A DNA stretch of 64,000 nucleotides from a virus (IMGVR_UViG_3300045988_006728); one strand, 5' to 3'. Shown: positions 4,663-47,882, counted from the stretch's first letter. Made by a program: numbers and translations. Notes: generated from the letters alone by a model not told the origin.

Positions 4663-5115
4663 ATGGCACGTAGCAGTTTGACTAAAGATATTCTTGAACC
4701 TTTAGTAAAGGGTTCAGTATCATTCAGAGAAGTGCTTATAAAGCTTGGGAGAAAACCATCAGGTGGTTCTCAGTCACATCTAAAGCGTGTTATAGAGAAG
4801 TTTGAAATAGACACTTCTCATTTCCTCGGACAAAAGGCTGGTAAGATTAAAACTGTACCAAAAAGAAAGCCTGAAGAAATCTTAATTCTACGTGAATCTG
4901 GTGAAAGAGCAAGGTCTTCACAACTAAGAAGAGCTTTAATAGCATCTGGTATCGAATACAAATGCTCTAAATGCGGTCAGTTACCGGAGTGGTTGGGCAA
5001 CCCTCTAACTCTTGATGTTGACCACATTAATGAGAACTGGTTAGATGATAGAAAAGAGAATCTTCGGTTCTTATGTCCAAATTGCCACAGTCAATTCTCA
5101 AGGCATTTGATTTAA
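4663..5115 (+). CDS. HNH homing endonuclease inside the tRNA array
   Basis: 150-aa ORF with C-terminal HNH signature DVDHINENW...RFLCPNCHSQ; stop codon lies 2 nt before the next tRNA. Confidence 0.7.
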   Translation: MARSSLTKDILEPLVKGSVSFREVLIKLGRKPSGGSQSHLKRVIEKFEIDTSHFLGQKAGKIKTVPKRKPEEILILRESGERARSSQLRRALIASGIEYKCSKCGQLPEWLGNPLTLDVDHINENWLDDRKENLRFLCPNCHSQFSRHLI

Positions 5116-34957: not shown

Positions 34958-35105
34958 TATCTCTGCTTATAGCATCACCATGTAACTTGTATACTCTGCA
35001 ATCTTGCATCTCTGGTGGGAGGCTATAAGAAGCATTTTTATCTTCATAAGAAGGGTTGCAGCCAGATAGAAAAATAACACCAAGCGCAATTACCACTTTC
35101 CACAT
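34869..35105 (-). CDS. Small lipoprotein (signal peptide plus lipobox LSGC); candidate superinfection-exclusion protein
   Basis: 78 aa from the internal ATG preceded by an AGGAG RBS; MWKVVIALGVIFLSGCNP. Confidence 0.5.
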   Translation of the reverse strand: MWKVVIALGVIFLSGCNPSYEDKNASYSLPPEMQDCRVYKLHGDAISRDIVVVRCPNSQTTTSYSYGKNGQSHTTVIE

Positions 35106-35760
35106 AACACTACTCCTATTACTGTTCACGATGTTCTACTTCTCTGTACGTTCGTCGATAGTATATAATAAGCTGTGCTAACTCGTTGCTTTTAACATCT
35201 GAACGTAGCAGTTGCCAATCAAAACCTTTACCGACTCTTCCATATAAACTAAACAGTTTTACTTTGCGTTTCATTTTGGTATACCAATACTCAGAAGTCA
35301 ATATTAATACGTTCGCCCTTAAGGACTCCAGTACGGTCTCTTGCAATCTTGCCGTCAACAATAAGGATATGTGCAGCCCTTAAAGAGTCACTATTAAAAG
35401 CTTTTACGAACTTACTAGGCATCACTACAATGGGCATCTCCTGAATCAACTCTGGAGTATAGCAATTGTCGTGAAGTTGCTGAATAACGTCTGCAAGTGT
35501 CATTTTTGATGTCTCCAATACTCAATGTCAATAAGTTCTTGTGCAATGCTTTTAAGGTTACCTTTCAAGAAAACCTTCTCAGAACCTGAAAGAGATGAAT
35601 TGTCAATTAACCTGTTCATTCTCTCAAACAACTTCTGCTTACGATTTTTGATAGTCTCCTTTGAAGCACCTTTCATCATTGCTGCATGGGTTCTTCCACG
35701 ATGGCTCATAATCCCTCCTATACAAGATGTAGTATAAGGTACTCTTCCCTGAGCACCTTG

Positions 35761-36324
35761 TCAACTTAGTTTTGCAAACTCTCCGTGGAGTTTAATAGCA
35801 GCTTCACAGTAAGCTTTATGGGCTTCTTCTGGTGTGTCAAACATACCAAGATGATAGTTTTTACCTTGTAAACGTATCATTGCTCGAAACCTTTTACTTA
35901 TCTTCTGTACACCTTTTGGCAACCCAGATGGGGACTTTCTTGACCGATTGCAAGAGTTTTGTGAAGCTGTACAAACCCTTAAATTCAAGTACCTATTGTC
36001 CCAACCGTCCCCATTCTTATGGTCAACCTGTAAGTTTTTATCAGGCAGGTATCCATCCACATATAGTATTGCTAGACGGTTAGCTTGGTAGCCTTTACCA
36101 TCAAGCAATAACTGAACAGACTTGTGACCATCTGTGTTTATCCTATAATTTCCTGCCTTTTTACCTCCAAAACGAGAGTTGAAGTTCTTATTGCCTCGTG
36201 ATACCGGCTCTCTAAACTTCCAAGTAAAGACCCCTGTTTCGGGGTCGTAGTCCAATAGCTCCTTAAGACGAATTTCTGTAATCATTTCAACACCATCAAT
36301 GTACTTCCAACCAGCTCTTACCAA
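35761..36324 (-). CDS. HNH homing endonuclease with AP2-type DNA-binding domain
   Basis: 187 aa; HNH region QVDHKNGDGWDNRYLNLRVC...N.CN; overlaps the 3' end of the polymerase gene by 29 nt; paralog of 45864-46388. Confidence 0.7.
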   Translation of the reverse strand: MVRAGWKYIDGVEMITEIRLKELLDYDPETGVFTWKFREPVSRGNKNFNSRFGGKKAGNYRINTDGHKSVQLLLDGKGYQANRLAILYVDGYLPDKNLQVDHKNGDGWDNRYLNLRVCTASQNSCNRSRKSPSGLPKGVQKISKRFRAMIRLQGKNYHLGMFDTPEEAHKAYCEAAIKLHGEFAKLS

Positions 36325-38995
36325 CCTTACCTGTGCCAGTTACAAGCGTCTCACTCTTCAAACCTAAATTCTTAGATGCCTGACCATACATCCAGTCAGT
36401 TATGGCTTTCACTTCTTGAGTCATACTTTCTGGACATTCCCAACTGTTTTCATCGTGGTATGCCAGCAAAAGCCTAGCACCAATTGCTGGTTTTCGTCCA
36501 TTTAATTTTGTCAACCCTTCTTCACATGCTCTTCTACAAGCAAGGTTAATTGCCTCATTTTGAATCTGAGCCTCCGAACCCATGAGCAAATAATTCAATA
36601 ACTTATGTGGAGATTTACACCACAACCAAGCTCCAGCAACCTTTACAAAACCCCCTTTAGAGATTGCAGCAGTCTTACCAAACACCTCTTCAAGTGCCTT
36701 TTTAGTTGCTTTGTAGTCAGCTTCCAAGTCATCTAACAGCTTCTTAATTTTAGGCAAACGGATAAAGTAAGTCTGTTTAGTCAGCGCACCTTCCTGAGTA
36801 GTTGCAGCCTTAATCGTCTTAGCAAACTTCTCATCACCTGCACCGAACAGCAGTGCATAGATACCATTCTTAGCTTTCTTACGGCCTTTGCTAATCTCAT
36901 GAAGAAGATTCTCATCCTGAGTAGCTCGACAAGTCAAGATATCCTGCTCATCATTCAAGCTAAAGTAAATACTGTTCAATGTATGTGCATCAGTCCCTGA
37001 ATAGACAACGTACAGGTCATTCTCAGAGTCATAGCGAAGGTACTTATCAATCTCTGGGTTGAGGTACTCATCAAAATGTTTGCAGTAATAGCGTCCATCT
37101 TCTTGACGAATGAACTCAATTTCTTCTTTACCTTGCGTTACCGCTTTGGTGAAGTCTTTATCACCCATAAAGTTACAAAGAAGAACTAGCTGGGCTGAGT
37201 TCATATCTACAGAGACAACGTTAGTACCTTCCTCACAAATCCATACTGCCCTCATTGGTTCTCCATAGACAGCAGCACCAGACGGTACGTTTACAATACC
37301 ATACTGTGTCATACGTCCAGTTGAAGTACCAAACACCATTGCACCAGCACTAAGGCGACCATCAGGACGAATCTGGTTAAGCCAACCTTTTTCATCATCC
37401 TTTGAGTTCTCAATAGTTCTGCGTCGGTGCATCAAAGTATAGTACTTAGCAATCTTCTGTCCAAGCTCACCTTCAATCGTATCATAAGATGATTCAGTAA
37501 GTTTTGGTGAAGTACGGATTAAGCAAGGTTCAAGCAAATCTGTGTATTTCTTCACAGACCAGTTATGCTCGATGTACTGTACACCTTCATGTTCAACATA
37601 ACTCAAACCACACCGCTCAACCATTTCCTGCCACTTAGGATGCTTTGTAATCATCTTTTTATTGTCTTTGAAACGACAAACTTTGACAGGGCGACCATCT
37701 GAGTCTTTCTTGTAATTCCAGTCATCTGGAACCCAACCAACTGATTTCAAGTAGTCTTTAACAACTGCTACCTGAGTCATACGAGAAACTTCAAACTCAA
37801 TTGGTGTATATGGCGCATCAATCAAACCTGTGTAGCGACTTGACTCAAGTTCAAAGTGGTTAACAACGTGGCTGTTATAGTACTTCACAGTTTTGACTGT
37901 TTTTACTGGTTTCCAGTCTTTGCATTTCTTACCAATCTTTGCGTTCAACTCATTGCAAATTGCACGAGCATCCTTCATTGCTACAAAACCCTCCTTGTAC
38001 TCTTCACCAGTTACAGAGTTGGTTGGTGTATAGCAATTTCTCTTTTCAATGTTAAAAATCTTTGTAGTTGGCTTACCAAATGGTTTGATTTCATAAGTCT
38101 GCATCTCACCATTACGCACCTGCTGACGATACTTCGTCTTAGGGTACTTGGTAATTCTTTTCAGTCCATCTGCATGACCAAATGCTTCAACATACTCATT
38201 CCAAGCTTTTGCAAACTCTTCTCCAGTGACTTTACCTTTGGTCTTAATAGTTGGAGGTAGATGCGGTTCAACTTCTGAAGCAAGCTCATTAGTCAACTTG
38301 TCAAGTTCCTTTACATGGAACTCCATAAGCTCTTTATCAGCTTTCCAGCCATTGATAGCTTGTTGACTCATCCAGAAAGATGTTTCTTTAGCTCGCATGT
38401 AGGTTTCATAAGTGTCTATGCCACACTTCTTAAGCTTGAGATATTCATTATCAAGTGCCCGTTTAGTTTTGGCGTTAATACGGATATCTTCTACAACACG
38501 AGTGAAGATTTCTGCATTCCACACACCCCAATGTTCAATCTCTGGTTTACGAACACCAACACGAGCACCCCATGCAGCCAAACCATGAGCACCTTTATAG
38601 CCCTTTGGAGTTGGTCTATCCATCCACTGAACACGAGACTGGATAAGAGAATCCTGAAAGAAATTACTCCACGGTTTACACTTTGGATTATCAAAGTTCC
38701 ATAAATCAGGTGCAATGTGATTGAAAACCCACCAGTCATAACCGAGACCATTATGGATGCAAAGACGTTTTGCCTTTAACGCAAACTCAATGCCTTCACG
38801 TAAGCCACCCTTAATGTACTTGGTATACTTGTGACCGAGGATAGGCTCATCTGTAAAGACCCATACAGGCGGCTCTTCATCGTCAGATTTATAGTCTGCG
38901 AAAGCCATTACGTGCACTTTAGTGAACTCAAGGAGTAAACCATCAGTTTCTGTATCACCAACTAAATGTAAGTTTTTAAAATCTACGTTTTCCAT
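36296..38995 (-). CDS. DNA polymerase, family A, with 3'-5' exonuclease domain
   Basis: C-terminal motifs VVSVDMNSAQL (A), KKAKNGIYALLFGAG (B) and LLAYHDE (C); likely start at 38995 with a GAGGGAG RBS (track ORF extends to 39025). Confidence 0.8.
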   Translation of the reverse strand: MENVDFKNLHLVGDTETDGLLLEFTKVHVMAFADYKSDDEEPPVWVFTDEPILGHKYTKYIKGGLREGIEFALKAKRLCIHNGLGYDWWVFNHIAPDLWNFDNPKCKPWSNFFQDSLIQSRVQWMDRPTPKGYKGAHGLAAWGARVGVRKPEIEHWGVWNAEIFTRVVEDIRINAKTKRALDNEYLKLKKCGIDTYETYMRAKETSFWMSQQAINGWKADKELMEFHVKELDKLTNELASEVEPHLPPTIKTKGKVTGEEFAKAWNEYVEAFGHADGLKRITKYPKTKYRQQVRNGEMQTYEIKPFGKPTTKIFNIEKRNCYTPTNSVTGEEYKEGFVAMKDARAICNELNAKIGKKCKDWKPVKTVKTVKYYNSHVVNHFELESSRYTGLIDAPYTPIEFEVSRMTQVAVVKDYLKSVGWVPDDWNYKKDSDGRPVKVCRFKDNKKMITKHPKWQEMVERCGLSYVEHEGVQYIEHNWSVKKYTDLLEPCLIRTSPKLTESSYDTIEGELGQKIAKYYTLMHRRRTIENSKDDEKGWLNQIRPDGRLSAGAMVFGTSTGRMTQYGIVNVPSGAAVYGEPMRAVWICEEGTNVVSVDMNSAQLVLLCNFMGDKDFTKAVTQGKEEIEFIRQEDGRYYCKHFDEYLNPEIDKYLRYDSENDLYVVYSGTDAHTLNSIYFSLNDEQDILTCRATQDENLLHEISKGRKKAKNGIYALLFGAGDEKFAKTIKAATTQEGALTKQTYFIRLPKIKKLLDDLEADYKATKKALEEVFGKTAAISKGGFVKVAGAWLWCKSPHKLLNYLLMGSEAQIQNEAINLACRRACEEGLTKLNGRKPAIGARLLLAYHDENSWECPESMTQEVKAITDWMYGQASKNLGLKSETLVTGTGKVGKSWLEVH

Positions 38996-39054
38996 TTTTA
39001 CTCCCTCTAAAATCATTAACCTCATACATTACTGCAAAAAATTATAAAAAGCAA

Positions 39055-39095
39055 GTTGACAATGCACTTGACAAGGTGTTAATCTTTGCGAAGTG
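39055..39095 (+). promoter_or_regulatory. Promoter with duplicated TTGACA and conserved CTTGACAAGGTG 12-mer in a divergent AT-rich control region
   Basis: Same TTGACA-N6-TTGACA architecture as in the terminal repeat; ACTTAAAAGGTT motif follows at 39106. Confidence 0.45.
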
Positions 39096-39252
39096 GGTTT
39101 TTACTTAAAAGGTTACTTAACAGTTTAACTATACAGATACTTTAAAACTCTTAAAAGATTATTTAATAGCTTTTAAAAAGCTTTAAAGTATAACGTATAG
39201 AATACGTTAAGATAAAAGATTAAAACTTAATAGTTACTTAAAAGAGGCTTAC

Positions 39253-39675
39253 ATGCAGAAAATGTTTGTTCACCCAGACATAGCTGACTTTGTTAGAGCT
39301 TTGCAGAAGTTGGAAGAACTTGACATTGCTGCTCAACGGGAATATGCTCACCATCACAGGAGAATGGTTGATATACAACATGAAATAGAGTTGTCTGAAA
39401 ACTATGAAGATGACTTAAAATGCTCTGTATTTGAGCATATGAAAGATGTTGCTACAGCTAGACGTAAAGCTAAAGACACAGTTGCTTTACTAGATTCTCT
39501 TAAAAAGAGGTTGCAAAGTGGTACAGACTTGTGTAATCTAGCGTCACTGATTAACGATGTTGAAACTTCTTGGGATAGGCACTATTATCCACGTTCTGAA
39601 AAGACACTTGACTTTTCTTCATCAGAAAACTTAAAATGTTCTAGAAAGAAACTTAACCAACTGAGAGAGAAATAA
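39253..39675 (+). CDS. Hypothetical protein
   Basis: 140-aa ORF. Confidence 0.4.
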   Translation: MQKMFVHPDIADFVRALQKLEELDIAAQREYAHHHRRMVDIQHEIELSENYEDDLKCSVFEHMKDVATARRKAKDTVALLDSLKKRLQSGTDLCNLASLINDVETSWDRHYYPRSEKTLDFSSSENLKCSRKKLNQLREK

Positions 39676-39676
39676 T

Positions 39677-40477
39677 ATGAATATCAATGTAGAAAAGATG
39701 CTTGAAGAAAAAGGTATTAACGAAGCATTTTTAATCAATGCCGTAGAAAGCATGGCTATGATTCTTCGTGGGAACAACTACACAGAACAGTTTATGCCTG
39801 CAAGCTACAACTTGCCTGAAGACAAGTCTGATAACGGTGCTTTTGCAGAACAGGTCAACATGATGCTTTGTGACAAAAAACTTGCTTTAGCATCTATTGT
39901 TGTAGGTGTCGATGCTCTTGCAGAGTTCATTTTTTATGAGATGCAGAAAAATGACTATATTGCCATGACCTCTGAAGAAAAAGACTCACTACTGCTCTTA
40001 GATAATAATGAGCTAATTGACCTGTTAATTTCGTCAACGAGTGCTGTTATGGCTGCGCTTGAGAAGCGCATGGAAGAGAAACTTTCACGATATGAAAAAC
40101 TTGATTGGGGCGTAGAAGAATTAAACCCACGAATCAAAGAGATTATACAGCAAACTAAAGAGTCTTTGGAAGAAGCTGTTGAAAATGACTCTGTAGCTGA
40201 TATAGAACCACTTCAGGTGAAAGTTACACTGATGATTCCAGCTATCTCCACGATGATGAAAATCGTTGCACTAATCCAACTTTCACAGATGATGGGTGTG
40301 AGTATTGAGTTAATTGAGGAGATGACTGGTGGCGTTAGTATGCAAGCAATCAATGATGTTTTGGTGAACATTGGTGCTTCAATCATTGAAGAGAAACTAC
40401 GCATTAACTTCGGTGATGATTTTGTGAAGCAAATCTCAGCTATGGCTGAAAAAGAGTCTGCTGAGCAACTGCACTAA
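39677..40477 (+). CDS. Hypothetical protein
   Basis: 266-aa ORF followed by a terminator hairpin. Confidence 0.4.
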   Translation: MNINVEKMLEEKGINEAFLINAVESMAMILRGNNYTEQFMPASYNLPEDKSDNGAFAEQVNMMLCDKKLALASIVVGVDALAEFIFYEMQKNDYIAMTSEEKDSLLLLDNNELIDLLISSTSAVMAALEKRMEEKLSRYEKLDWGVEELNPRIKEIIQQTKESLEEAVENDSVADIEPLQVKVTLMIPAISTMMKIVALIQLSQMMGVSIELIEEMTGGVSMQAINDVLVNIGASIIEEKLRINFGDDFVKQISAMAEKESAEQLH

Positions 40478-40538
40478 GTCTTTATAAATCTTACAAGCCT
40501 CCTTAGTTGGGGGCTTTTTAGTAATTAAGGGAGATAAA

Positions 40539-41282
40539 ATGAGTAATATTATCGCATTTACTGGAAAGGCACGTTCTGGAAAAGACACCTCATGTTCTAT
40601 TGTGAAGAACATCTTAGAGGATGAGTATGGCTACAATGTTGCTGTAATGGCCTTTGCAGACAACCTTAAACTATCTGCATCAAAGATATTTGACTTGACT
40701 TGGAATGACCTGTACGGTGAAACTAAAGAGACTCCACAGGTTTTTGACTTATCATACTCTGAACTGATGTTTAAAGTTACGGAAGCTATGGAGTTCACCT
40801 TCAGAGATGAACGTTACCATATGGACTTCAAGCTTATGTCAGAGTTAACCGGACGATTAATCATGGAGCTTAAGAAGGTTGCTAAACCGACTCTATTGAC
40901 ACGTCTGGGGTTTAGTAAAAAGTATAAATTCTCATCAAGACAAATTCAACAGATTTGGGGTACTGAAGTTGTCCGTAAAGTAATGGGCGACAAGTTCTGG
41001 TCTAAAGACCTTGAAAAAAGAATGGTTAGATTCCATGAAATGTGCTCACTTAGAAATCAATATGGTTTTGTCTTAATCAGTGATTTAAGATTTGACTCTG
41101 AAGCTGAATGGCTGAGTAGATTTGCACACCAAACTATTGAAGTAAAAAGAGACAATGTGGACAAAGTTTCATCACATGTTTCAGAAAATGGGATTTCTAC
41201 AAAATATGAGCGTGACATTATTCATAATAATGGTACTCTTGCAGACCTTGAGAACAAGCTAAGAGCCATCATTAAAGTTTAA
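40539..41282 (+). CDS. Deoxynucleoside monophosphate kinase
   Basis: 247 aa; N-terminal P-loop AFTGKARSGKDT matches the phage dNMP kinase signature as recalled. Confidence 0.7.
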   Translation: MSNIIAFTGKARSGKDTSCSIVKNILEDEYGYNVAVMAFADNLKLSASKIFDLTWNDLYGETKETPQVFDLSYSELMFKVTEAMEFTFRDERYHMDFKLMSELTGRLIMELKKVAKPTLLTRLGFSKKYKFSSRQIQQIWGTEVVRKVMGDKFWSKDLEKRMVRFHEMCSLRNQYGFVLISDLRFDSEAEWLSRFAHQTIEVKRDNVDKVSSHVSENGISTKYERDIIHNNGTLADLENKLRAIIKV

Positions 41283-41477
41283 AAGAGAGAATGAAGATGA
41301 GAGTAAAAGACAATTTTAAAGTTATTGACCACCGTTTAGTGGAACTCTCATCTCTTTCCAATGAGGTAATGATTGAACGTCTTAAGAGAGTTGAATCACG
41401 AAGGAAAGAGATTGCAGATGAAATTCATGAACTGGACAAGATTGAAAATGGATTGAAGGCAGAACTACAACGAAGAG

Positions 41478-43469
41478 GTGCTAATGTCTAAAGGTCGTAA
41501 ATTGAAAGAGGCTGGTCAGTTTGTTGGTCATTGCGCATGTCCACGTTGTGGTTCATCAGATGCTGGTTCAATCTATCATCATGACGATGATTCTTATTCA
41601 ATGACTTGCTTTAGTTGTAACAAAGGTTTCCCAGAGTGGGATTTTGATAAAGGACAAATCGTGAGCACTTATTCTACTGGTTCAGACAATAAAAACCGTA
41701 CTTTCCGTGGAATGGATTTAGACGATGTGAAAGAAAACCTTGAAGCAATGGACTTAAAGGATAGGAAGATTCCTGCAAAAGTCCTTGAACGCTTAGGTAT
41801 CAAGGTTGACATTGACAGTGACGGTGAAATTGATGCGCACTTCTATCCAACTTACAAACGTAATGAAGATGGTAAGCTAGAACATGTTGGCTACCGTGTT
41901 CGTCACCGTTACCCAGAAGACCATCCAAAAGAGCACCTACGTGGTAAGTTAAAAGACTTTTCTGGTGGTGTTGGAGACATTAAAGGTGAACTAGCAATGT
42001 TCGGTTCATGGATTGCTCCAGAAGGTGGTAACCGTCTATTCATCTGGGAAGGTGAGATGGAATGTGCGACAGCAATCTATATGACTTCTCTTGCGATTAA
42101 GGACAAGTCTCGTCGTAAGAATTACTGTCACGTATCTGTTCCATCAGGTGCAAACATTAAGTCTATCAAAGACAACTATCAGTACATCACATCATTTGAT
42201 GAGATTTACTTGTGCTTTGATAACGATGAAGCAGGTGCTAAAGCTACCAAAGAGGCTGCTGGTATCCTACCTATTGAGAAGGTTCGCTTATTCCAGTATC
42301 CAGAAGGTGTAAAAGACCTTAACGAGTGGTGGACAAAGTTCTATAAAGAGAAAGATACAGTTCTGGAAGGATTTAAGCAGCGTATCTACAATGCACCTCG
42401 TTACTGTCCTGCTGGTATCAAGAACTTTGCAGACGGTTTTGAGGCAATGAAGAATCGTGGTCAGATTCCATTGATTCCTTTCCCAGAATCTTTCGGGGAT
42501 TTGAACAGGCTGACTTATGGTGGTTACGGTTTAGGTGAGATTACAACTCTGGCAGCACCATCTTCAGTGGGTAAATCTGCATACACTCGTGAAATGATTT
42601 ATACTGCTTGGAAGGAAACCGATTACAATATTGGTGTAATTCCAGTTGAAGATACCTATGAAGAGTTGATGGAGATGCTCTGTGCAATTCACCTGAGCAA
42701 GCAGATTTCTGAGATTCCTTATGACGAACGTGATTGGGATGAATTGAAGGAAGCACACGCAGAACTATCTAAAGGTCGTCGTATCCACATCGTAGACCAT
42801 CAAGGGGCAATTGACCAAGATAACTTGCTGGAGTTTGTTGACTATCTTGTTAATAGTTTAGACTGTAAGATTATTATTCTTGACCCTATTACATTGGCCC
42901 TGTCACGTTCAGATACGGATGAAGAGGAAGTTTTATCTGAGCTATTGCGTCGTTGCAAACGCTACCAGTACGCACAGGTGAACGTCTGTCACGTTCGTAA
43001 GAGTGCAGGTGGTCAGAAGGCTAACTCCGAAGGTGGAGATATCTCTGAAGAGGATATTAAAGGTTCTGGTGCGTATTTCCAGATTTCTATGAACAACATT
43101 CTGTTAATGCGTAACAAGGTTGACCCAGACCCTGTTAAGAAAAACTTGACAAAAATCAAGTTAACTAAGTGTCGTCGTCATGGTAAGTCAACAGGTATTG
43201 CTGGTCATACTTGGTACAATCCAGATACAGGACGTCTTATCAAAGCTTCTGGATGTGGTGTTGATATTGATGGTGCAGCAGAAAATATTCGCCAGCAGTT
43301 TGGTATTGGTGAAGCTGAAGACCATTACGATGACTCTTTGCCACATTATGAGGACGAAGTGTTTGACCGTGAGACTGGTGAAGTCTATACTGAAGAGCAG
43401 CGTCAAAGCTCAACGATTCCACCTGTATTAAGTGAGGATGCAGATGACTGCCCGTTCGAAACTGAGTGA
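41478..43469 (+). CDS. Bifunctional DNA primase-helicase (T7 gp4-like)
   Basis: Zn-binding CACPRCG...CFSCN, TOPRIM region (FIWEGEMECATAI, CFDNDEAGAKA), helicase Walker A APSSVGKS and Walker B IIILD. Confidence 0.8.
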   Translation: MLMSKGRKLKEAGQFVGHCACPRCGSSDAGSIYHHDDDSYSMTCFSCNKGFPEWDFDKGQIVSTYSTGSDNKNRTFRGMDLDDVKENLEAMDLKDRKIPAKVLERLGIKVDIDSDGEIDAHFYPTYKRNEDGKLEHVGYRVRHRYPEDHPKEHLRGKLKDFSGGVGDIKGELAMFGSWIAPEGGNRLFIWEGEMECATAIYMTSLAIKDKSRRKNYCHVSVPSGANIKSIKDNYQYITSFDEIYLCFDNDEAGAKATKEAAGILPIEKVRLFQYPEGVKDLNEWWTKFYKEKDTVLEGFKQRIYNAPRYCPAGIKNFADGFEAMKNRGQIPLIPFPESFGDLNRLTYGGYGLGEITTLAAPSSVGKSAYTREMIYTAWKETDYNIGVIPVEDTYEELMEMLCAIHLSKQISEIPYDERDWDELKEAHAELSKGRRIHIVDHQGAIDQDNLLEFVDYLVNSLDCKIIILDPITLALSRSDTDEEEVLSELLRRCKRYQYAQVNVCHVRKSAGGQKANSEGGDISEEDIKGSGAYFQISMNNILLMRNKVDPDPVKKNLTKIKLTKCRRHGKSTGIAGHTWYNPDTGRLIKASGCGVDIDGAAENIRQQFGIGEAEDHYDDSLPHYEDEVFDRETGEVYTEEQRQSSTIPPVLSEDADDCPFETE

Positions 43470-43943
43470 TAGCTATAAAAGAGAGGGGTTCACACCCTTC
43501 TTTGAAGAAAAAAGTTTAAATAAATTTCATGAAGAGTGTTTGACAAAGATTGATAGGTTCTATAGAATGCTCCACATGAAATGCGATGGAGAAGTTGAAA
43601 TAGAACAACAGTTCCATCAAAGTATGATTACAGTCATCATTACACTGCCTCAGCATAATATTGGTTGGCTGTTTATAATGAAAGAAAATGTGTTTGAATA
43701 TCAAGTATATCGGAGAATATCATGAAACACTCTAAAGCATTTGAAAAAGTTTTTGGGGATTCCTTAAAAGCCACTGCTGGAAAACCAGCAAAATACTATG
43801 AAGAAAAACGTGTAAGAACTGGAAAAACTGCACGTAAAGCAGCTTCTAAAGATAAGCACAACTTCCAGTAATTAGTATTTGACAATAGAGTATCAACAAA
43901 TTAGAATTGGTACTCTTCATAAATTGAGATAGAGGTTTAAATA

Positions 43944-44801
43944 ATGTCTAAAGTTGTTAAAATGAAAGCTCCGGTAGAGAAGTACAACGGTACTGAACGT
44001 CAAACTCTGCGTTACCTGCTGAAAGATGTCTGGTTTTATTACCTGAACACTTCACCACGTCCGGGTAAAGGTAAATCTATTGACAAGAAATTCCCAGGAA
44101 AAGATTGTAACTACAGCGTATCAATTCTGGCAGAAGACGGTAACAAACTCTTTAAAGAGTTTACTAAGTCTAAGAAGAACCCAGAAGGTTGGGATAAAGT
44201 TACTACTGAAGCAGTTGATGCAGATGACTTCGAAGAGAAGTTTGGTTGCAAACCACCTTTTGAAGCAGACACTTACTACATCTTGAAAGTAAGTCGTGCA
44301 GCAGCTTATAAAGATGGTGCTGTATGGACAGCTAAACAGTCATTCCCTGTTATGCTTATTGAAGAAGTAAATGGTAAGCGTGTAGCTGTTAAACAGCCGA
44401 TGAAGAAAATTAAAGCTCAAGCATCTGATAAACACGAAGATGACAAGAACTATGATGTAATTCATCCAGATATTGCAGTTGGTAACGGTTCTTTTGGTAG
44501 TGTGATTCTTTCTACTCACTTCTACACTTTTGAGAACAATGTTCTGACAAAACCTATTCAGGAACAGTTTATCATTGATACTCTTGTACCTTACACTGGT
44601 GGTAACGGTGCTAATGGTGAACCTGAACTGGATGAAGATGAACTGGCTATGCTTGGTCTTGATGGTGTTGAAGATAACGGTGAAATCACTGAAGAAGACG
44701 CAACAGACCATAAATCTTCGAATGATTCTGATGATGGTGATGATGAAGACTTGCCAGACCCAGATGACGAAGAAGATGAAGACTTCGATACAGAAGACTA
44801 A
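43944..44801 (+). CDS. Single-stranded DNA-binding protein (putative) with acidic C-terminal tail
   Basis: 285 aa; C-terminus DDGDDEDLPDPDDEEDEDFDTED; preceded by a strong promoter (TTGACA-17-TAGAAT). Confidence 0.45.
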   Translation: MSKVVKMKAPVEKYNGTERQTLRYLLKDVWFYYLNTSPRPGKGKSIDKKFPGKDCNYSVSILAEDGNKLFKEFTKSKKNPEGWDKVTTEAVDADDFEEKFGCKPPFEADTYYILKVSRAAAYKDGAVWTAKQSFPVMLIEEVNGKRVAVKQPMKKIKAQASDKHEDDKNYDVIHPDIAVGNGSFGSVILSTHFYTFENNVLTKPIQEQFIIDTLVPYTGGNGANGEPELDEDELAMLGLDGVEDNGEITEEDATDHKSSNDSDDGDDEDLPDPDDEEDEDFDTED

Positions 44802-44863
44802 TCTCTAAAAGTTACTTTAAAGCCCTGTACTTAGTATGGGGCTTTTTCATATGGAGAGCCATA

Positions 44864-45910
44864 ATGGAGAAGTACACATTAACAAAACTTCCCGATTCAG
44901 TTACACATGTTTTTATTGACTCTGACAGTATTGCCTATAAAGGCGCTTGTGTAGTTGAGAAAGCAAAATATAAATATGTCAATAAACTCACAGCAGAAGA
45001 ATCTGAATCATTTGATAATGCAAAAGATGCTGCAAGATGGTTAGCAGACCAGAGAATCCTTGTGGAAGAGCTTGGCCTGACATTTGATGAAGATGAATGG
45101 GAAAGACAGACTTGGAAAGAAGCTAAGAGTGAAAAAGAAGCTATCATGGCTACTCAACAGGTGCTTCAGGAATGGCTTAAGATTGTTGGTAAAGAGAGAA
45201 CTTGGGTAGGTTATTTAACAGAGAAAGGTGTGCATAAACATAAAGACATTAAAGGTCTTGAGCACCAATATCAAGGTAACCGCAAAGATGCTGTCACACC
45301 AACACACTTAGTTGCTTGTCGTGAGTATCTTCTGTCAAGACCAGAGTTTAAATTGATTCTTGATGGATTTGAAGCTGACTCTATCGTTATCGCTAAAGCT
45401 GAAAAGATGGGAAAAAAGGCTGCCTTAATGAGTATTGATAAAGACCTTCGCCAAGCTGAAGGTACTTACTGCATTGATATGACCTATGAAAAATCACCTT
45501 TAATTTTCATTGCTGATAACAACGTTGGTGAAATTTGGGATTGTCCAATAAAATCGACACCAAAAGCTAAGAAGACAGTTGGTGTAGGTTTTAAATTTCT
45601 TTGTTATCAAGCTGTGGCTGGTGATAATGCGGATAATTACTTTGGTTTAAAGGGTGTTGGCAAAGCTGCTGTGATGAAGGCTCTTGAAGGGAAAACAACT
45701 TACAAAGAGTGTCTTGATGCAATTTACGAGCTATATGCTAAGAAAGACTCCTACACTTATGTATCATGGGATGGTCAAACAATTACCAGAACACCTTTAG
45801 AATTAATGCAGCAACACTTTTTCTTAGCTTATCAGGAAAGAAATAAAAAAGACGATTTTACTTTTGATAAGTATGGGTGGACACCAAATGTTAACTCAAC
45901 AAACTCTTAA
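44864..45910 (+). CDS. RNase H / flap endonuclease-like 5'-3' exonuclease
   Basis: 348 aa; segments HVFIDSDSIAYKGA and GFEADSIVIA...MSIDKDL resemble the T4 RNase H acidic clusters as recalled. Confidence 0.5.
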   Translation: MEKYTLTKLPDSVTHVFIDSDSIAYKGACVVEKAKYKYVNKLTAEESESFDNAKDAARWLADQRILVEELGLTFDEDEWERQTWKEAKSEKEAIMATQQVLQEWLKIVGKERTWVGYLTEKGVHKHKDIKGLEHQYQGNRKDAVTPTHLVACREYLLSRPEFKLILDGFEADSIVIAKAEKMGKKAALMSIDKDLRQAEGTYCIDMTYEKSPLIFIADNNVGEIWDCPIKSTPKAKKTVGVGFKFLCYQAVAGDNADNYFGLKGVGKAAVMKALEGKTTYKECLDAIYELYAKKDSYTYVSWDGQTITRTPLELMQQHFFLAYQERNKKDDFTFDKYGWTPNVNSTNS

Positions 45911-46388
45911 AGAATACCTGCACTATGACCCCGAAACAGGGGTCTTTACTTGGTTAGTTGGTAGAAGAGGTAAGGCCAAAGCTGGCTCAGTAGCAGGTCT
46001 TAAACACCATAGTGGTTATATCTATATAAAACTCTTCGGAAAAAGATATGCAGCACACAGACTGGCAGTCTTGTATATGAAAGGCTACCTCCCAAAATTT
46101 GTTGACCACAAGAATGGTATCAGGCACGACAACTGGTTCGACAATTTGAGAGAGTGTAGCAGGTCAGACAACAACTGCAATGCAGTCAAAAGAAAAGATA
46201 ATAAGTCTGGTGTGAAGGGTGTATATTACCACAAGCAAAGAGGTAGATGGGCTGCACAAGTCAAGCATAATAAAGTATGCTACCATCTAGGTTTATTTGA
46301 CTCTATCACTGAGGCTGAATCAGTTGTCAAAAAGAAAAGAGAAGAACTACATAAAGAGTTTTCAAATCACGGAGAAGCTTATGAATGA
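45864..46388 (+). CDS. HNH homing endonuclease with AP2-type domain
   Basis: 174 aa; VDHKNGIRHDNWFDNLRECSRSDNNCN; shares the N-terminal motif YDPETGVFTW with 35761-36324. Confidence 0.7.
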   Translation: MISMGGHQMLTQQTLKEYLHYDPETGVFTWLVGRRGKAKAGSVAGLKHHSGYIYIKLFGKRYAAHRLAVLYMKGYLPKFVDHKNGIRHDNWFDNLRECSRSDNNCNAVKRKDNKSGVKGVYYHKQRGRWAAQVKHNKVCYHLGLFDSITEAESVVKKKREELHKEFSNHGEAYE

Positions 46389-46882
46389 AGATTAAAGGAT
46401 TTGGCAATTGCCCTACCTATGGTCATTGGGTGTCTTTATGTGGGGAAGTTGACCCCACTAAACATTTTGGCTTTGTCTATTTAGTGCACTGTAAGAAGAC
46501 TGGACAATATTATATCGGAAAGAAACAGCTTAACAGTGTGACCAAAAGAAAAGTTGCTGGGAAGACTCGGAAGAAGGTAGTCACTAAGGAAAGTGATTGG
46601 ATGACTTACGAAACCTCTTCTGAGTATATTAAAAAAGATATTGAGAGCTTTGGAAAAGAATTTTTTGACTTTTACATTATCCAAACCTACTACACAAAAG
46701 GTGGCCTAGTCTATGGTGAAGCAAACCTTCAACATAAATTCGATGTAATGACAAAAAGGATTGACTCTAAGCTCAGACTCTTCTACAATGCCAATATTGC
46801 AGCAATTAAGTTTATTACTAAAGAAACTTATGAAGATGCTGAAAAAAGAATCCATAAGGTAATGAAAGCAAATTGTGCTTGA
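46385..46882 (+). CDS. GIY-YIG-like nuclease (putative homing endonuclease)
   Basis: 165 aa; N-terminal FGFVYLVHCKKTGQYYIGKK fits the GIY...YIG pattern. Confidence 0.4.
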   Translation: MKIKGFGNCPTYGHWVSLCGEVDPTKHFGFVYLVHCKKTGQYYIGKKQLNSVTKRKVAGKTRKKVVTKESDWMTYETSSEYIKKDIESFGKEFFDFYIIQTYYTKGGLVYGEANLQHKFDVMTKRIDSKLRLFYNANIAAIKFITKETYEDAEKRIHKVMKANCA

Positions 46883-46888
46883 TAACTA

Positions 46889-47134
46889 TTGAGAGAGAAT
46901 AAAATGTTTAACAAAAGCAAAGCTGTGAGTCATGTAGCAAAAGTTGACAGTAAGATTGAAGAACTTGAGCGCATTCTTGCAAATGCTAGAGAGTCAATAA
47001 TTAAAGAAGTTGAAGCTGTTGAATCACAAATGCAGCATCTAATACTTAAACGCCAAGAGCTACGTGAGCATCTGGAATATATTGAAACACGAGAGCTAAA
47101 GGTTAACAGATTTTTAAGGAGTCCAAATGTTTAA
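46889..47134 (+). CDS. Hypothetical coiled-coil protein
   Basis: 81-aa ORF. Confidence 0.35.
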   Translation: MRENKMFNKSKAVSHVAKVDSKIEELERILANARESIIKEVEAVESQMQHLILKRQELREHLEYIETRELKVNRFLRSPNV

Positions 47135-47882
47135 CTCAAGAGAAGCAGTAAAAAACTGGAATCTTCGTTGTGGAAACACTCAAAAGCAACCTTACAGTGA
47201 TGAGTATTGGGAATCTTTAAAATCCCAGTCTCTGTGTATGCTGGAAGAAGCAAAAGAGCTTGTAAAAGCAATTGAAGAGAAAGACCCCATTGAGACACTG
47301 GATGCTCAGGCAGATTTGCAATATGTTCTTGACGGTTTGATTTACCTGTCACAACATGACCATAACGGTGCTATGAAAGCTGTTTGCCGTAATAATGACC
47401 TGAAGTACACAGATGACTATGAAGAAGCTTTAAAACGTCTTGCAGATATTGAGAAGCGTACTGGTCAAGAGTGTATTATCAGAATGTCAGTAGTTGATGG
47501 TAAAGAGTGGTATGCCATTGTTCGTGCAGCAGATGGGAAGATTATGAAGCAATCGAATCTCCCTAAAGTACAGCTTGGTGAATACATTGTAGAACTTGAA
47601 AGCCAAGAACTTTTTGTGGTAGTATCTGAGACATGCGTTATCTGCAAAGGTATTGTAGATAGTTTAAAGGATTTAGGTGTAGATGGTTTTGTAGAAGTTA
47701 ATCCAATTACCTCTAAAGCAGATAAAGACTTCTGTAAAGAGAATGGACTATGGATTGCAGACATTATCTACTATGATGGTGAGCAGTTCCATGTAACCTC
47801 ATACCCGAAACTGAATTATGATGCTAATAACCTGAAGTGCTGGTTAAAAGGGGTTGGTTATAATGGATTCACAGAACATTAA
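47127..47882 (+). CDS. MazG-like nucleotide pyrophosphohydrolase domain protein (putative)
   Basis: 251 aa; N-terminal helical EE..E...D motif cluster (LEEAKELVKAIEE...DAQADLQYVL). Confidence 0.35.
   Translation: MFNSREAVKNWNLRCGNTQKQPYSDEYWESLKSQSLCMLEEAKELVKAIEEKDPIETLDAQADLQYVLDGLIYLSQHDHNGAMKAVCRNNDLKYTDDYEEALKRLADIEKRTGQECIIRMSVVDGKEWYAIVRAADGKIMKQSNLPKVQLGEYIVELESQELFVVVSETCVICKGIVDSLKDLGVDGFVEVNPITSKADKDFCKENGLWIADIIYYDGEQFHVTSYPKLNYDANNLKCWLKGVGYNGFTEH

Follow-up and report, generated by a model that had tools for sequence, protein, structure and literature searches.

Free-standing HNH-AP2 endonuclease cassettes beside the DNA polymerase and exonuclease genes of a Felixounavirus, their predicted internal hairpin and a fixed GIY-YIG neighbour

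In this work, we have analysed a stretch of viral DNA of 64,000 nucleotides (nt), IMGVR_UViG_3300045988_006728 (the window, by which we mean the whole stretch at its full length), and in it two genes for HNH-AP2 endonucleases, one placed at the 3΄ end of a DNA polymerase gene (pol) and the other at the 3΄ end of a 5΄-3΄ exonuclease gene (exo), where a GIY-YIG nuclease gene follows. The explanation that best accounts for the whole, to which we give a probability of about 0.8, is that the HNH-AP2 genes are free-standing homing cassettes with a putative attenuator hairpin inside their coding sequence, and that the GIY-YIG gene is a fixed core gene. The window belongs to a Felixounavirus, the region being 95–99% identical in DNA to many sequenced genomes, with the best matches at 98%. 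Felixounaviruses are FelixO1-like myoviruses, with Escherichia, Salmonella and Shigella as hosts. That HNH genes lie next to pol and exo in these phages is already known, from the 2010 report on Felix O1 (PMC3185647) and the 2023 report of HNH-AP2 genes beside polymerase genes (PMC10448857), and is ordinary for the group. As far as we have found, earlier accounts of these phages had lacked three points: the exact insertion junctions with their empty alleles, the fixation of the GIY-YIG gene, and the conservation of the hairpin codons.

HNH-AP2 genes at the pol and exo sites

An earlier note on this DNA had placed three open reading frames (ORFs) at 35761–36324 (-), 45864–46388 (+) and 46385–46882 (+), and all three are found there. 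Its description of the first two as paralogous HNH-AP2 endonucleases sharing the motif YDPETGVFTW is borne out by domain matches. The Pfam family HNH_3 matches the pol-site protein at 2e-12 and the exo-site protein at 4e-12, and both match phrog_99, ‘HNH endonuclease’ (1e-59 and 9e-75, respectively). A C-terminal AP2 domain is found in the exo-site protein (4.9e-8; 33.6 bits, just above the gathering cutoff of 33.3) and, under that cutoff, in the pol-site protein (2.8e-6, 28.0 bits); three other HNH alleles of the pol site all carry HNH_3 and AP2 (other alleles score 1e-9 and 1.6e-9 for AP2). The two window proteins are 40% identical over 179 amino acids (aa; E=3e-33), and 12 diverse homologs show no variation at D88, H89, N97, N101 and N113, with the D-H, N and N of the HNH motif among these positions. 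By tblastn no third HNH-AP2 paralog is present in the 64 kb window. A recent duplication of the pair was considered and rejected, given that the identity is only 40% and that each protein clusters with the alleles of its own site. An intein or intron was rejected as well, since the HNH ORFs are separate genes lying in another frame or past a stop codon, as also reported for Felix O1 (PMC3185647).

For the comparison of occupied and empty sites, 27 related IMG/VR loci were used, each spanning both sites and with the flanking genes located in every locus; the empty-site counts rest on these loci and not on the whole phage collection, in which about 260 related phage records and genomes served as the denominator for the window alleles. 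The earlier note had proposed a search for empty sites in relatives, and for the HNH genes this comparison yielded clean empty sites together with divergent alleles at the same junctions, which at both sites are exact to the nucleotide (Table 1).

At the pol site the HNH gene is absent from 12 of the 27 loci, nine of them cleanly empty, with the pol stop codon followed by a short spacer (mostly TTAGTA, TAGTG in two) and then by a conserved element that begins with TTGACA; the empty 3΄ end reads ...CACTAATTAGTATTGACA.... In four of these nine (L008, L009, L014 and L022) 61 nt lie between pol and the next gene, and in the other five (L001, L007, L010, L024 and L025) a different gene lies downstream; the remaining HNH-less loci (L015, L018 and L027) have 258–276 nt between pol and the next conserved gene. 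In the window the cassette takes the place of the six nucleotides TTAGTA between the pol stop and TTGACA, so placed that the TGA stop codon of the HNH gene falls within TTGACA. Occupied pol sites hold at least six allele classes, 41–88% identical to the window allele, which itself occurs in 28 of the ~260 records.

The exo site is empty in 16/27 loci, where exo ends with TGG GAG CCG TGT ATG AAT GAA GAT TAA (...TGGGAGCCGTGTATGAATGAAG...) and its stop codon and the GIY-YIG start overlap by 11 nt. The window cassette supplies the last 10 codons of exo (TPNVNSTNS*), and at its 3΄ end a GGAG is retained, 10 nt upstream of the GIY-YIG ATG. Occupied exo sites hold three to four allele classes, 55–59% identical to the window allele, and the latter is present in 43 of the ~260 records. 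Among the phage records, vB_EcoM_AYO145A and UAB_Phi87 matched a query of the empty exo junction as a single piece, in a search that merges split matches and so does not tell empty sites from occupied ones. The two sites assort independently: both are occupied in seven cases, only pol in nine, only exo in five and neither in seven (odds ratio ~1.1).

The exact relation of the HNH genes to the genes upstream depends on their start codons. The HNH gene at exo does overlap it, as the earlier note had said, and does so from any start, by 47 nt from TTG 45864, 38 nt from ATG 45873 or 23 nt from ATG 45888; its stop codon overlaps the GIY-YIG start (ATGA), so that the GIY-YIG ORF does follow directly. 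The 29-nt overlap with pol that the same note described arises only from the longest ORF, beginning at TTG 36324, the start also taken by the automatic annotation of the relative XTG1. ATG 36285, preceded by GGTG, is aligned with the starts of the exo-site paralog and of other alleles, and in L017 the homologous ATG is the sole possible start because a pol stop codon lies in-frame just upstream of it; these two observations place the HNH start 10 nt past the pol stop (36296), so the HNH gene of the window probably does not overlap pol. Some other pol-site alleles, including ORF95 of Felix O1, do overlap it.

Many other phage records hold just the last 45–106 nt of the window HNH genes. Moreover, each site has a C-terminal block of its own, common to its alleles (...EEAHKAYCEAAxKLHGEFAKLS for pol, ...REELHKEFSNHGEAYE for exo), round divergent cores, and this combination points to replacement of the cassette cores by recombination through conserved ends. 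The flanking genes are mosaic too. Among close relatives most of exo is 95–100% identical to the window, and its last ~500 nt show 74–87% identity in most empty and allele-C genomes, versus 85–100% in the majority of those that carry allele A or B; L021 combines a window-type exo tract with an empty exo site. The first 100–200 nt of the GIY-YIG gene occur in two forms among the relatives. In pol, identity breaks abruptly 300–1100 nt before the stop codon, from 95–100% to 74–87%, and in L011 and L026 the pol 3΄ end is 97% identical to that of the window but is followed by a different HNH allele. Gene conversion set off by an endonuclease would leave such sharp boundaries, which are consistent with homing; this pattern of flanks and turnover matches the general one described by Barth et al. 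2023 (PMC10448857).

We propose that each HNH-AP2 gene was inserted as a cassette of ~500 nt just past the last codons of a replication gene, pol or exo. In a mixed infection the enzyme would nick or cut a genome that lacks the cassette, at a point close to the 3΄ end of either gene, and repair would copy the cassette together with flanking sequence, leaving mosaic tracts beside both sites; different cassette cores would also have displaced one another at the same junctions. The opposite history, in which the HNH genes are ancestral residents that were repeatedly lost by deletion, so that the polymorphism reflects decay and not homing and the proteins are perhaps inactive or serve the phage, seems to us very unlikely. 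The exo-site copy of L005, with a 1-nt deletion in its CCCC run, would fit it, and the empty exo site of L021 within a window-type flank could be a precise loss. However, the empty layout, with its 11-nt overlap of exo and the GIY-YIG gene, is identical in distant genera (L015–L017, L019 and L023), which argues that the empty state is ancestral. Alleles that are only 32–59% identical at identical junctions, in flanks that are 95% identical, need cassette replacement and not decay in place; the catalytic HNH residues are intact, and all four combinations of occupancy of the two sites occur. The free-standing homing signature claimed in the earlier note is supported for both HNH-AP2 genes, by empty sites, alleles and flank breaks, and is not supported for the GIY-YIG ORF; the pol overlap counted in that signature is probably not real.

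These comparisons provide a nucleotide-exact map of two insertion sites together with natural empty alleles, and homing crosses are directly feasible, since E. coli K-12 supports the growth of Felixounaviruses, of which there are many isolates. The mosaic tracts also bear on phylogenies built from pol or exo in this group of phages.

Table 1. Coordinates of the pol-site and exo-site features in the window
Feature	Position	Strand	Basis and remarks
Family A DNA polymerase gene (pol)	36296..39025	-	DNA_pol_A 1e-15, phrog_17 4e-113; upstream of cassette
Pol-site cassette, 531 nt	35765..36295	-	Junctions of occupied versus empty loci (L008, L009, L014, L022)
Pol-site HNH-AP2 gene	35761..36285	-	174 aa from ATG 36285; longest ORF to TTG 36324
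Pol-site predicted hairpin, GACCCC-GAAACA-GGGGTC then TTTACTT	36229..36246	-	HNH codons 14-19; 49 nt past pol stop
Conserved intergenic element, ~55 nt	35710..35764	-	From TTGACA to ribosome-binding site of next gene
5΄-3΄ exonuclease/FEN-like gene (exo)	44864..45910	+	phrog_107 8e-66; upstream of cassette
Exo-site cassette, 499 nt	45881..46379	+	Junction comparison; replaces 8 nt GAGCCGTG of empty alleles
Exo-site HNH-AP2 gene	45888..46388	+	166 aa from ATG 45888; longest ORF from TTG 45864
Exo-site predicted hairpin, GACCCC-GAAACA-GGGGTC then TTTACTT	45927..45944	+	16 nt past exo stop
SegE-type GIY-YIG nuclease gene	46385..46882	+	165 aa; PF19835 SegE_GIY-YIG 9.4e-28

The GIY-YIG gene downstream of exo

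The earlier note had counted the GIY-YIG ORF among the invading endonucleases, and had named identical insertions in all relatives, with no empty alleles and no nuclease activity, as what would refute its reading. All relatives do carry this ORF: the gene is found in 27/27 loci with 86–100% aa identity and in 298 phage records, including Erwinia phages at ~70% nt identity, and no empty allele was seen in either set. In the more distant genomes it is 86–87% identical in aa, versus 75–80% for MazG and 43–53% for the small downstream gene, and its codon differences to distant relatives are 55–59 synonymous versus 23–25 nonsynonymous. The PF19835 domain covers residues 21–138 and leaves 27 residues after it, with no further Pfam domain and no recognisable DNA-binding module in the protein, so that there is no room for a DNA-binding domain. 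From these sequence comparisons we conclude that the GIY-YIG gene is fixed and under purifying selection, outside the mobile unit and not a recent invader. Two origins would account for this: the domestication of a nuclease, or an old sweep of the subfamily by a homing gene.

T4 SegE, a homing enzyme, belongs to the same Pfam family, PF19835, and this raises the alternative that the gene is an active homing endonuclease gene which has swept to fixation and may still home into more distant phages. Its SegE-type domain favours this, as do the presumed residues of the motif (GIY, YIG, Glu and Asn), invariant by eye in 18 distinct sequences, and the scattered distribution of distant homologs of 30–38% identity, found in many T4-like cyanophages, Vibrio phages and others, some of them annotated as homing endonucleases. 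A copy split by a frameshift, with an 86-aa product (L025, 11492–11990), suggests that the gene is dispensable, if this copy is a pseudogene; otherwise it is a homopolymer artefact of sequencing. Against active homing stand the lack of any empty allele, the position of the gene as the most conserved of its neighbourhood with an excess of synonymous changes, the mere 27 residues beyond the domain, and its translational coupling to exo in the layout taken as ancestral. The Felixounavirus protein, of 165 aa and with no identifiable DNA-binding domain, is fixed in the whole subfamily, unlike the Seg genes of T-even phages, which occur sporadically. We regard continued homing by this gene as doubtful, while keeping it as a serious minority possibility.

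A search of solved structures by sequence gave no match for the GIY-YIG protein, and the single-sequence AlphaFold model of it (predicted local distance difference test score, pLDDT, 42) was too poor for use. The gene bears the label ‘NAD synthetase’ in RefSeq records, in Felix O1 (ORF107), in PHROGs (phrog_447) and in hundreds of cyanophage records. This label appears to be a propagated misannotation, Pfam assigning the protein to SegE GIY-YIG. Caution is needed with a gene that is annotated ‘homing endonuclease’ or ‘NAD synthetase’ and behaves as a core gene.

The predicted hairpin in the HNH-AP2 coding sequences

The motif YDPETGVFTW is encoded by an identical 27 nt in both window genes, and these include a 6-bp inverted repeat predicted to form a hairpin with a 6-bp stem of which five pairs are G-C (fold -12.8 kcal/mol, z = -3.8). 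The pattern GACCCC-N6-GGGGTC occurs twice in the window versus 0.02 times expected, both times in the HNH genes, and the two hairpins are the top terminator-like hits in 35000–47500, an interval in which an Rfam scan at E<=1 gave no match. The codons that spell the stem are mostly rare in the long ORFs of the window (CCC 2.7% of Pro, GGG 7.7% of Gly, GTC 10.4% of Val, GAC 39% of Asp; joint probability 8e-5). Nevertheless, in a codon alignment of Felixounavirus allele classes that are 32–84% identical, the stem codons GAC CCC..GGG GTC are the same in 10/10. Of the 26 conserved columns that are at least 3-fold degenerate, just three are confined to one codon, and each of these belongs to the stem, an outcome of 1 in 2600; the other 23, which include nine other Gly and one other Pro, use two to five codons each. 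The loop varies (GAAACA, GACAAA, GATACA, GAAATA, TTAACA), in some cases with a change of amino acid.

With the protein motif as the sole criterion, 78 homologs were sampled; the seven Felixounavirus contigs among them all carry the full stem, and none of the 71 others does, five other AT-rich phages included, so that the hairpin as a general property of the protein family was rejected. Since the protein motif is family-wide but the stem is absent from all 71 homologs elsewhere, the hairpin is a nucleotide-level feature kept by selection in this lineage, and a clear case of selection on synonymous sites within a selfish gene. A pattern scan detected this stem in a few HNH genes from phages with 49–61% GC and at non-coding spots of unrelated AT-rich phages. 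The latter are L028, L032, L033, L035, L037 and L043 (27–32% GC), with GACCCC-loop-GGGGTCTT at terminator-like positions, and this occurrence at non-coding sites suggests a generic hairpin of the terminator type. The full stem (TATGACCCCGTCACAGGGGTCTT) also lies in the HNH-AP2 gene of an unrelated group (L041, L052, L059, L061 and L064; 49% GC, 30–47 kb), in two of which, L041 and L052, it is 53 nt past the stop codon of an upstream ORF of 346–381 aa; the arrangement may exist there in a second lineage. The feature annotated as ‘terminator’ in ASO1A was considered as the hairpin and discarded, as it is located upstream of exo. In L005 (11047–11100) the loss of one C from the CCCC of the hairpin puts the exo-site HNH gene out of frame; the copy is a pseudogene, or else the homopolymer was misread in sequencing.

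What would be the role of the hairpin? The candidate that we favour, at about even odds, is a weak intrinsic terminator or attenuator within the coding region, which would separate an early replication gene from the nuclease gene and keep nuclease expression low or late. A similar arrangement has been described by Edgell, Gibb and Belfort (2010) for mobE/segF of phage T4, where a free-standing endonuclease gene after an essential gene has a terminator inside its 5΄ coding end; in mobE, ~30% of transcripts end at this weak terminator, and the essential gene that follows is transcribed from a promoter located right behind mobE (PMC2988022). The layout of the pol site likewise runs from an essential gene to the hairpin early in the HNH gene and then to the TTGACA element at the HNH stop. 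Unlike in mobE/segF, the predicted hairpin is here made of the codons for D-P-x-x-G-V and is invariant across the divergent alleles. In Felix O1, by reverse transcription PCR, exo (ORF105) peaks at 5 min and the following HNH (ORF106) and GIY-YIG (ORF107) genes at 60 min (PMC3185647), and this late expression fits a transcriptional break at the hairpin. If so, the hairpin suggests a cassette constrained to limit its impact on the replication genes of its host.

Several observations weigh against attenuation. In the same Felix O1 data the pol-site HNH gene (ORF95) peaks at 5 min and pol (ORF96) at 25 min (PMC3185647), an order that simple attenuation at the pol site does not fit. The U-tract that follows the stem is short and broken by other bases (most alleles have UUUACUU, and the rest UUAACAU or UUCUACA), so that termination would be weak at best; the annotated terminators of Felix O1, with 5–6 U, have stronger tracts. 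A strong terminator at the exo site would starve the GIY-YIG gene and the genes downstream, and a promoter is not evident there. At the pol site the TTGACA element is promoter-like, yet its -10 hexamer is poor and it was not called by the promoter scan. Lastly, the stem shows no compensatory changes, and the preferred codons GAT, CCT and GTT, which would be compatible with G-U pairing, are never used; a constraint on the double-stranded DNA palindrome would explain the invariance of the stem equally well. No transcriptome or Term-seq study of a Felixounavirus was found in the literature.

The palindrome may act as DNA, for instance as an operator through which the HNH-AP2 protein represses its own gene, or for another dimeric protein, although we consider a role at this level unlikely; the rest of the probability goes to other RNA roles or to no function. 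The strict invariance of the stem, with no G-U wobble in a phage that prefers those codons, speaks for a DNA role, together with the perfection of the interrupted palindrome, its two G4/C4 tracts in a genome of 39% GC and the weak U-tract that varies among alleles. The AP2 domains of this family of endonucleases are reported to favour GC-rich DNA (PMC10448857), and I-TevI autorepression offers a precedent (PMC2988022). However, the element lies ~40 nt within the ORF, away from a promoter, a GC-rich motif of this kind is not seen at the empty target sites, and both copies are on the coding strand just past an upstream gene, where a terminator is expected. The hexamers GACCCC and GGGGTC occur 7 and 3 times genome-wide versus ~4 expected, neither avoided nor enriched, counts that also led us to reject avoidance or enrichment of a restriction-like site. 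A more specific version, likewise improbable in our judgement, is that the hairpin is a dual-coding cis element which every HNH-AP2 cassette needs in order to persist and which is read as a DNA palindrome, most likely through AP2 self-binding in autorepression or self-immunity. A palindrome read in this way would explain the exclusion of G-U-compatible synonymous changes, and if true it would give a second self-regulating homing endonuclease, unrelated to I-TevI, with the operator in its own coding sequence. It is also conceivable, though most improbable, that the conserved 18-mer has no function and owes its persistence to common descent or to recurrent conversion among the HNH copies. The 27 identical nucleotides of the two window copies would agree with this, and conversion does occur, as alleles of the same site have near-identical 3΄ DNA. 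But whereas none of the 12 stem bases ever changes, variation is seen in the loop and in the neighbouring Y, F and T codons, and conversion would homogenise the loop too; moreover, synonymous sites are saturated at the 23 other conserved columns of at least 3-fold degeneracy.

Comparison with known systems and further observations

Six free-standing HNH homing endonuclease copies, which are not inteins, were reported in Felix O1 by Whichard et al. 2010 (PMC3185647), and a comparison of the genus gave two or three HNH endonuclease copies per genome (PMC8300805). The Felix O1 orthologs of the genes studied here are ORF96 (pol), ORF95 (pol-site HNH), ORF105 (exonuclease), ORF106 (HNH) and ORF107 (GIY-YIG). 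ORF106 and ORF107 follow exo with ~96% nt identity to the window, and ORF95 lies just past pol; this pol-site gene differs from that of the window, being a g23-type allele of ~44% aa identity that overlaps pol by 19 nt. Empty sites, allele replacement and the hairpin were not reported in that paper, and the hairpin was missed there because terminators were considered in intergenic regions only (PMC3185647).

In the survey of Barth et al. 2023, HNH-AP2 genes (‘IPA-HNH’, from ICP1-like phages) lie beside DNA polymerase genes in 29% of cases, have the same N-terminal HNH and C-terminal AP2, and bracket essential modules as homing endonuclease gene islands (‘HEG-islands’) of unstable content at fixed positions (PMC10448857); ‘Felix’ has 0 occurrences in that article. 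Such bracketing is seen here, where the two cassettes flank a divergent replication module that runs from pol to exo (36296–45910). In contrast to a HEG-island, the bracketing genes are independent, and nothing points to transfer of the 9.6-kb module as a unit. Searching solved structures by sequence with the HNH protein gave weak matches only, to I-HmuI and to AP2. Among solved HNH homing endonucleases the closest by sequence is I-HmuI of Bacillus phage SPO1 (PDB 1u3e), a nickase, which matches across the HNH core at E=0.018 and differs in being intron-encoded and in its DNA-binding region.

The conserved element that follows the pol site is present in all 27 loci, with or without a cassette, and reads TTGACAAGGTGCTCAxGGAAGAGTACCTTATAC...TATAGGAGG. 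The genes after it differ from genome to genome, either a phrog_5180 gene or an ORF starting with MTLSD/MTISE. A third endonuclease site exists within pol itself, where L001, L005, L010, L014 and L025 have an insertion of 780–805 nt at the position that corresponds to ~36853 of the window, ~560 nt before the stop codon. Its product is an Endonuclease_7 protein of ~160 aa (PF02945, 9e-20), and pol is then split in two annotated genes, as in Mushroom and warpig. A 268-nt remnant of this insertion is found in L021, and the pol gene of the window is uninterrupted, so this site is unoccupied.

Another HNH ORF of the window, at 4663–5115 (+), codes for 150 aa with a PF01844 match (7.6e-5) and a zinc-ribbon-like CxxC pair; it is unrelated to the HNH-AP2 genes and adjoins an apparent tRNA cluster. 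Three records under other host names, MG065664 (Campylobacter phage A132), MG065668 (A126) and Staphylococcus phage SA1, show ~95% identity to this Felixounavirus over 4.3 kb, and are probably mislabelled or contaminant sequences.

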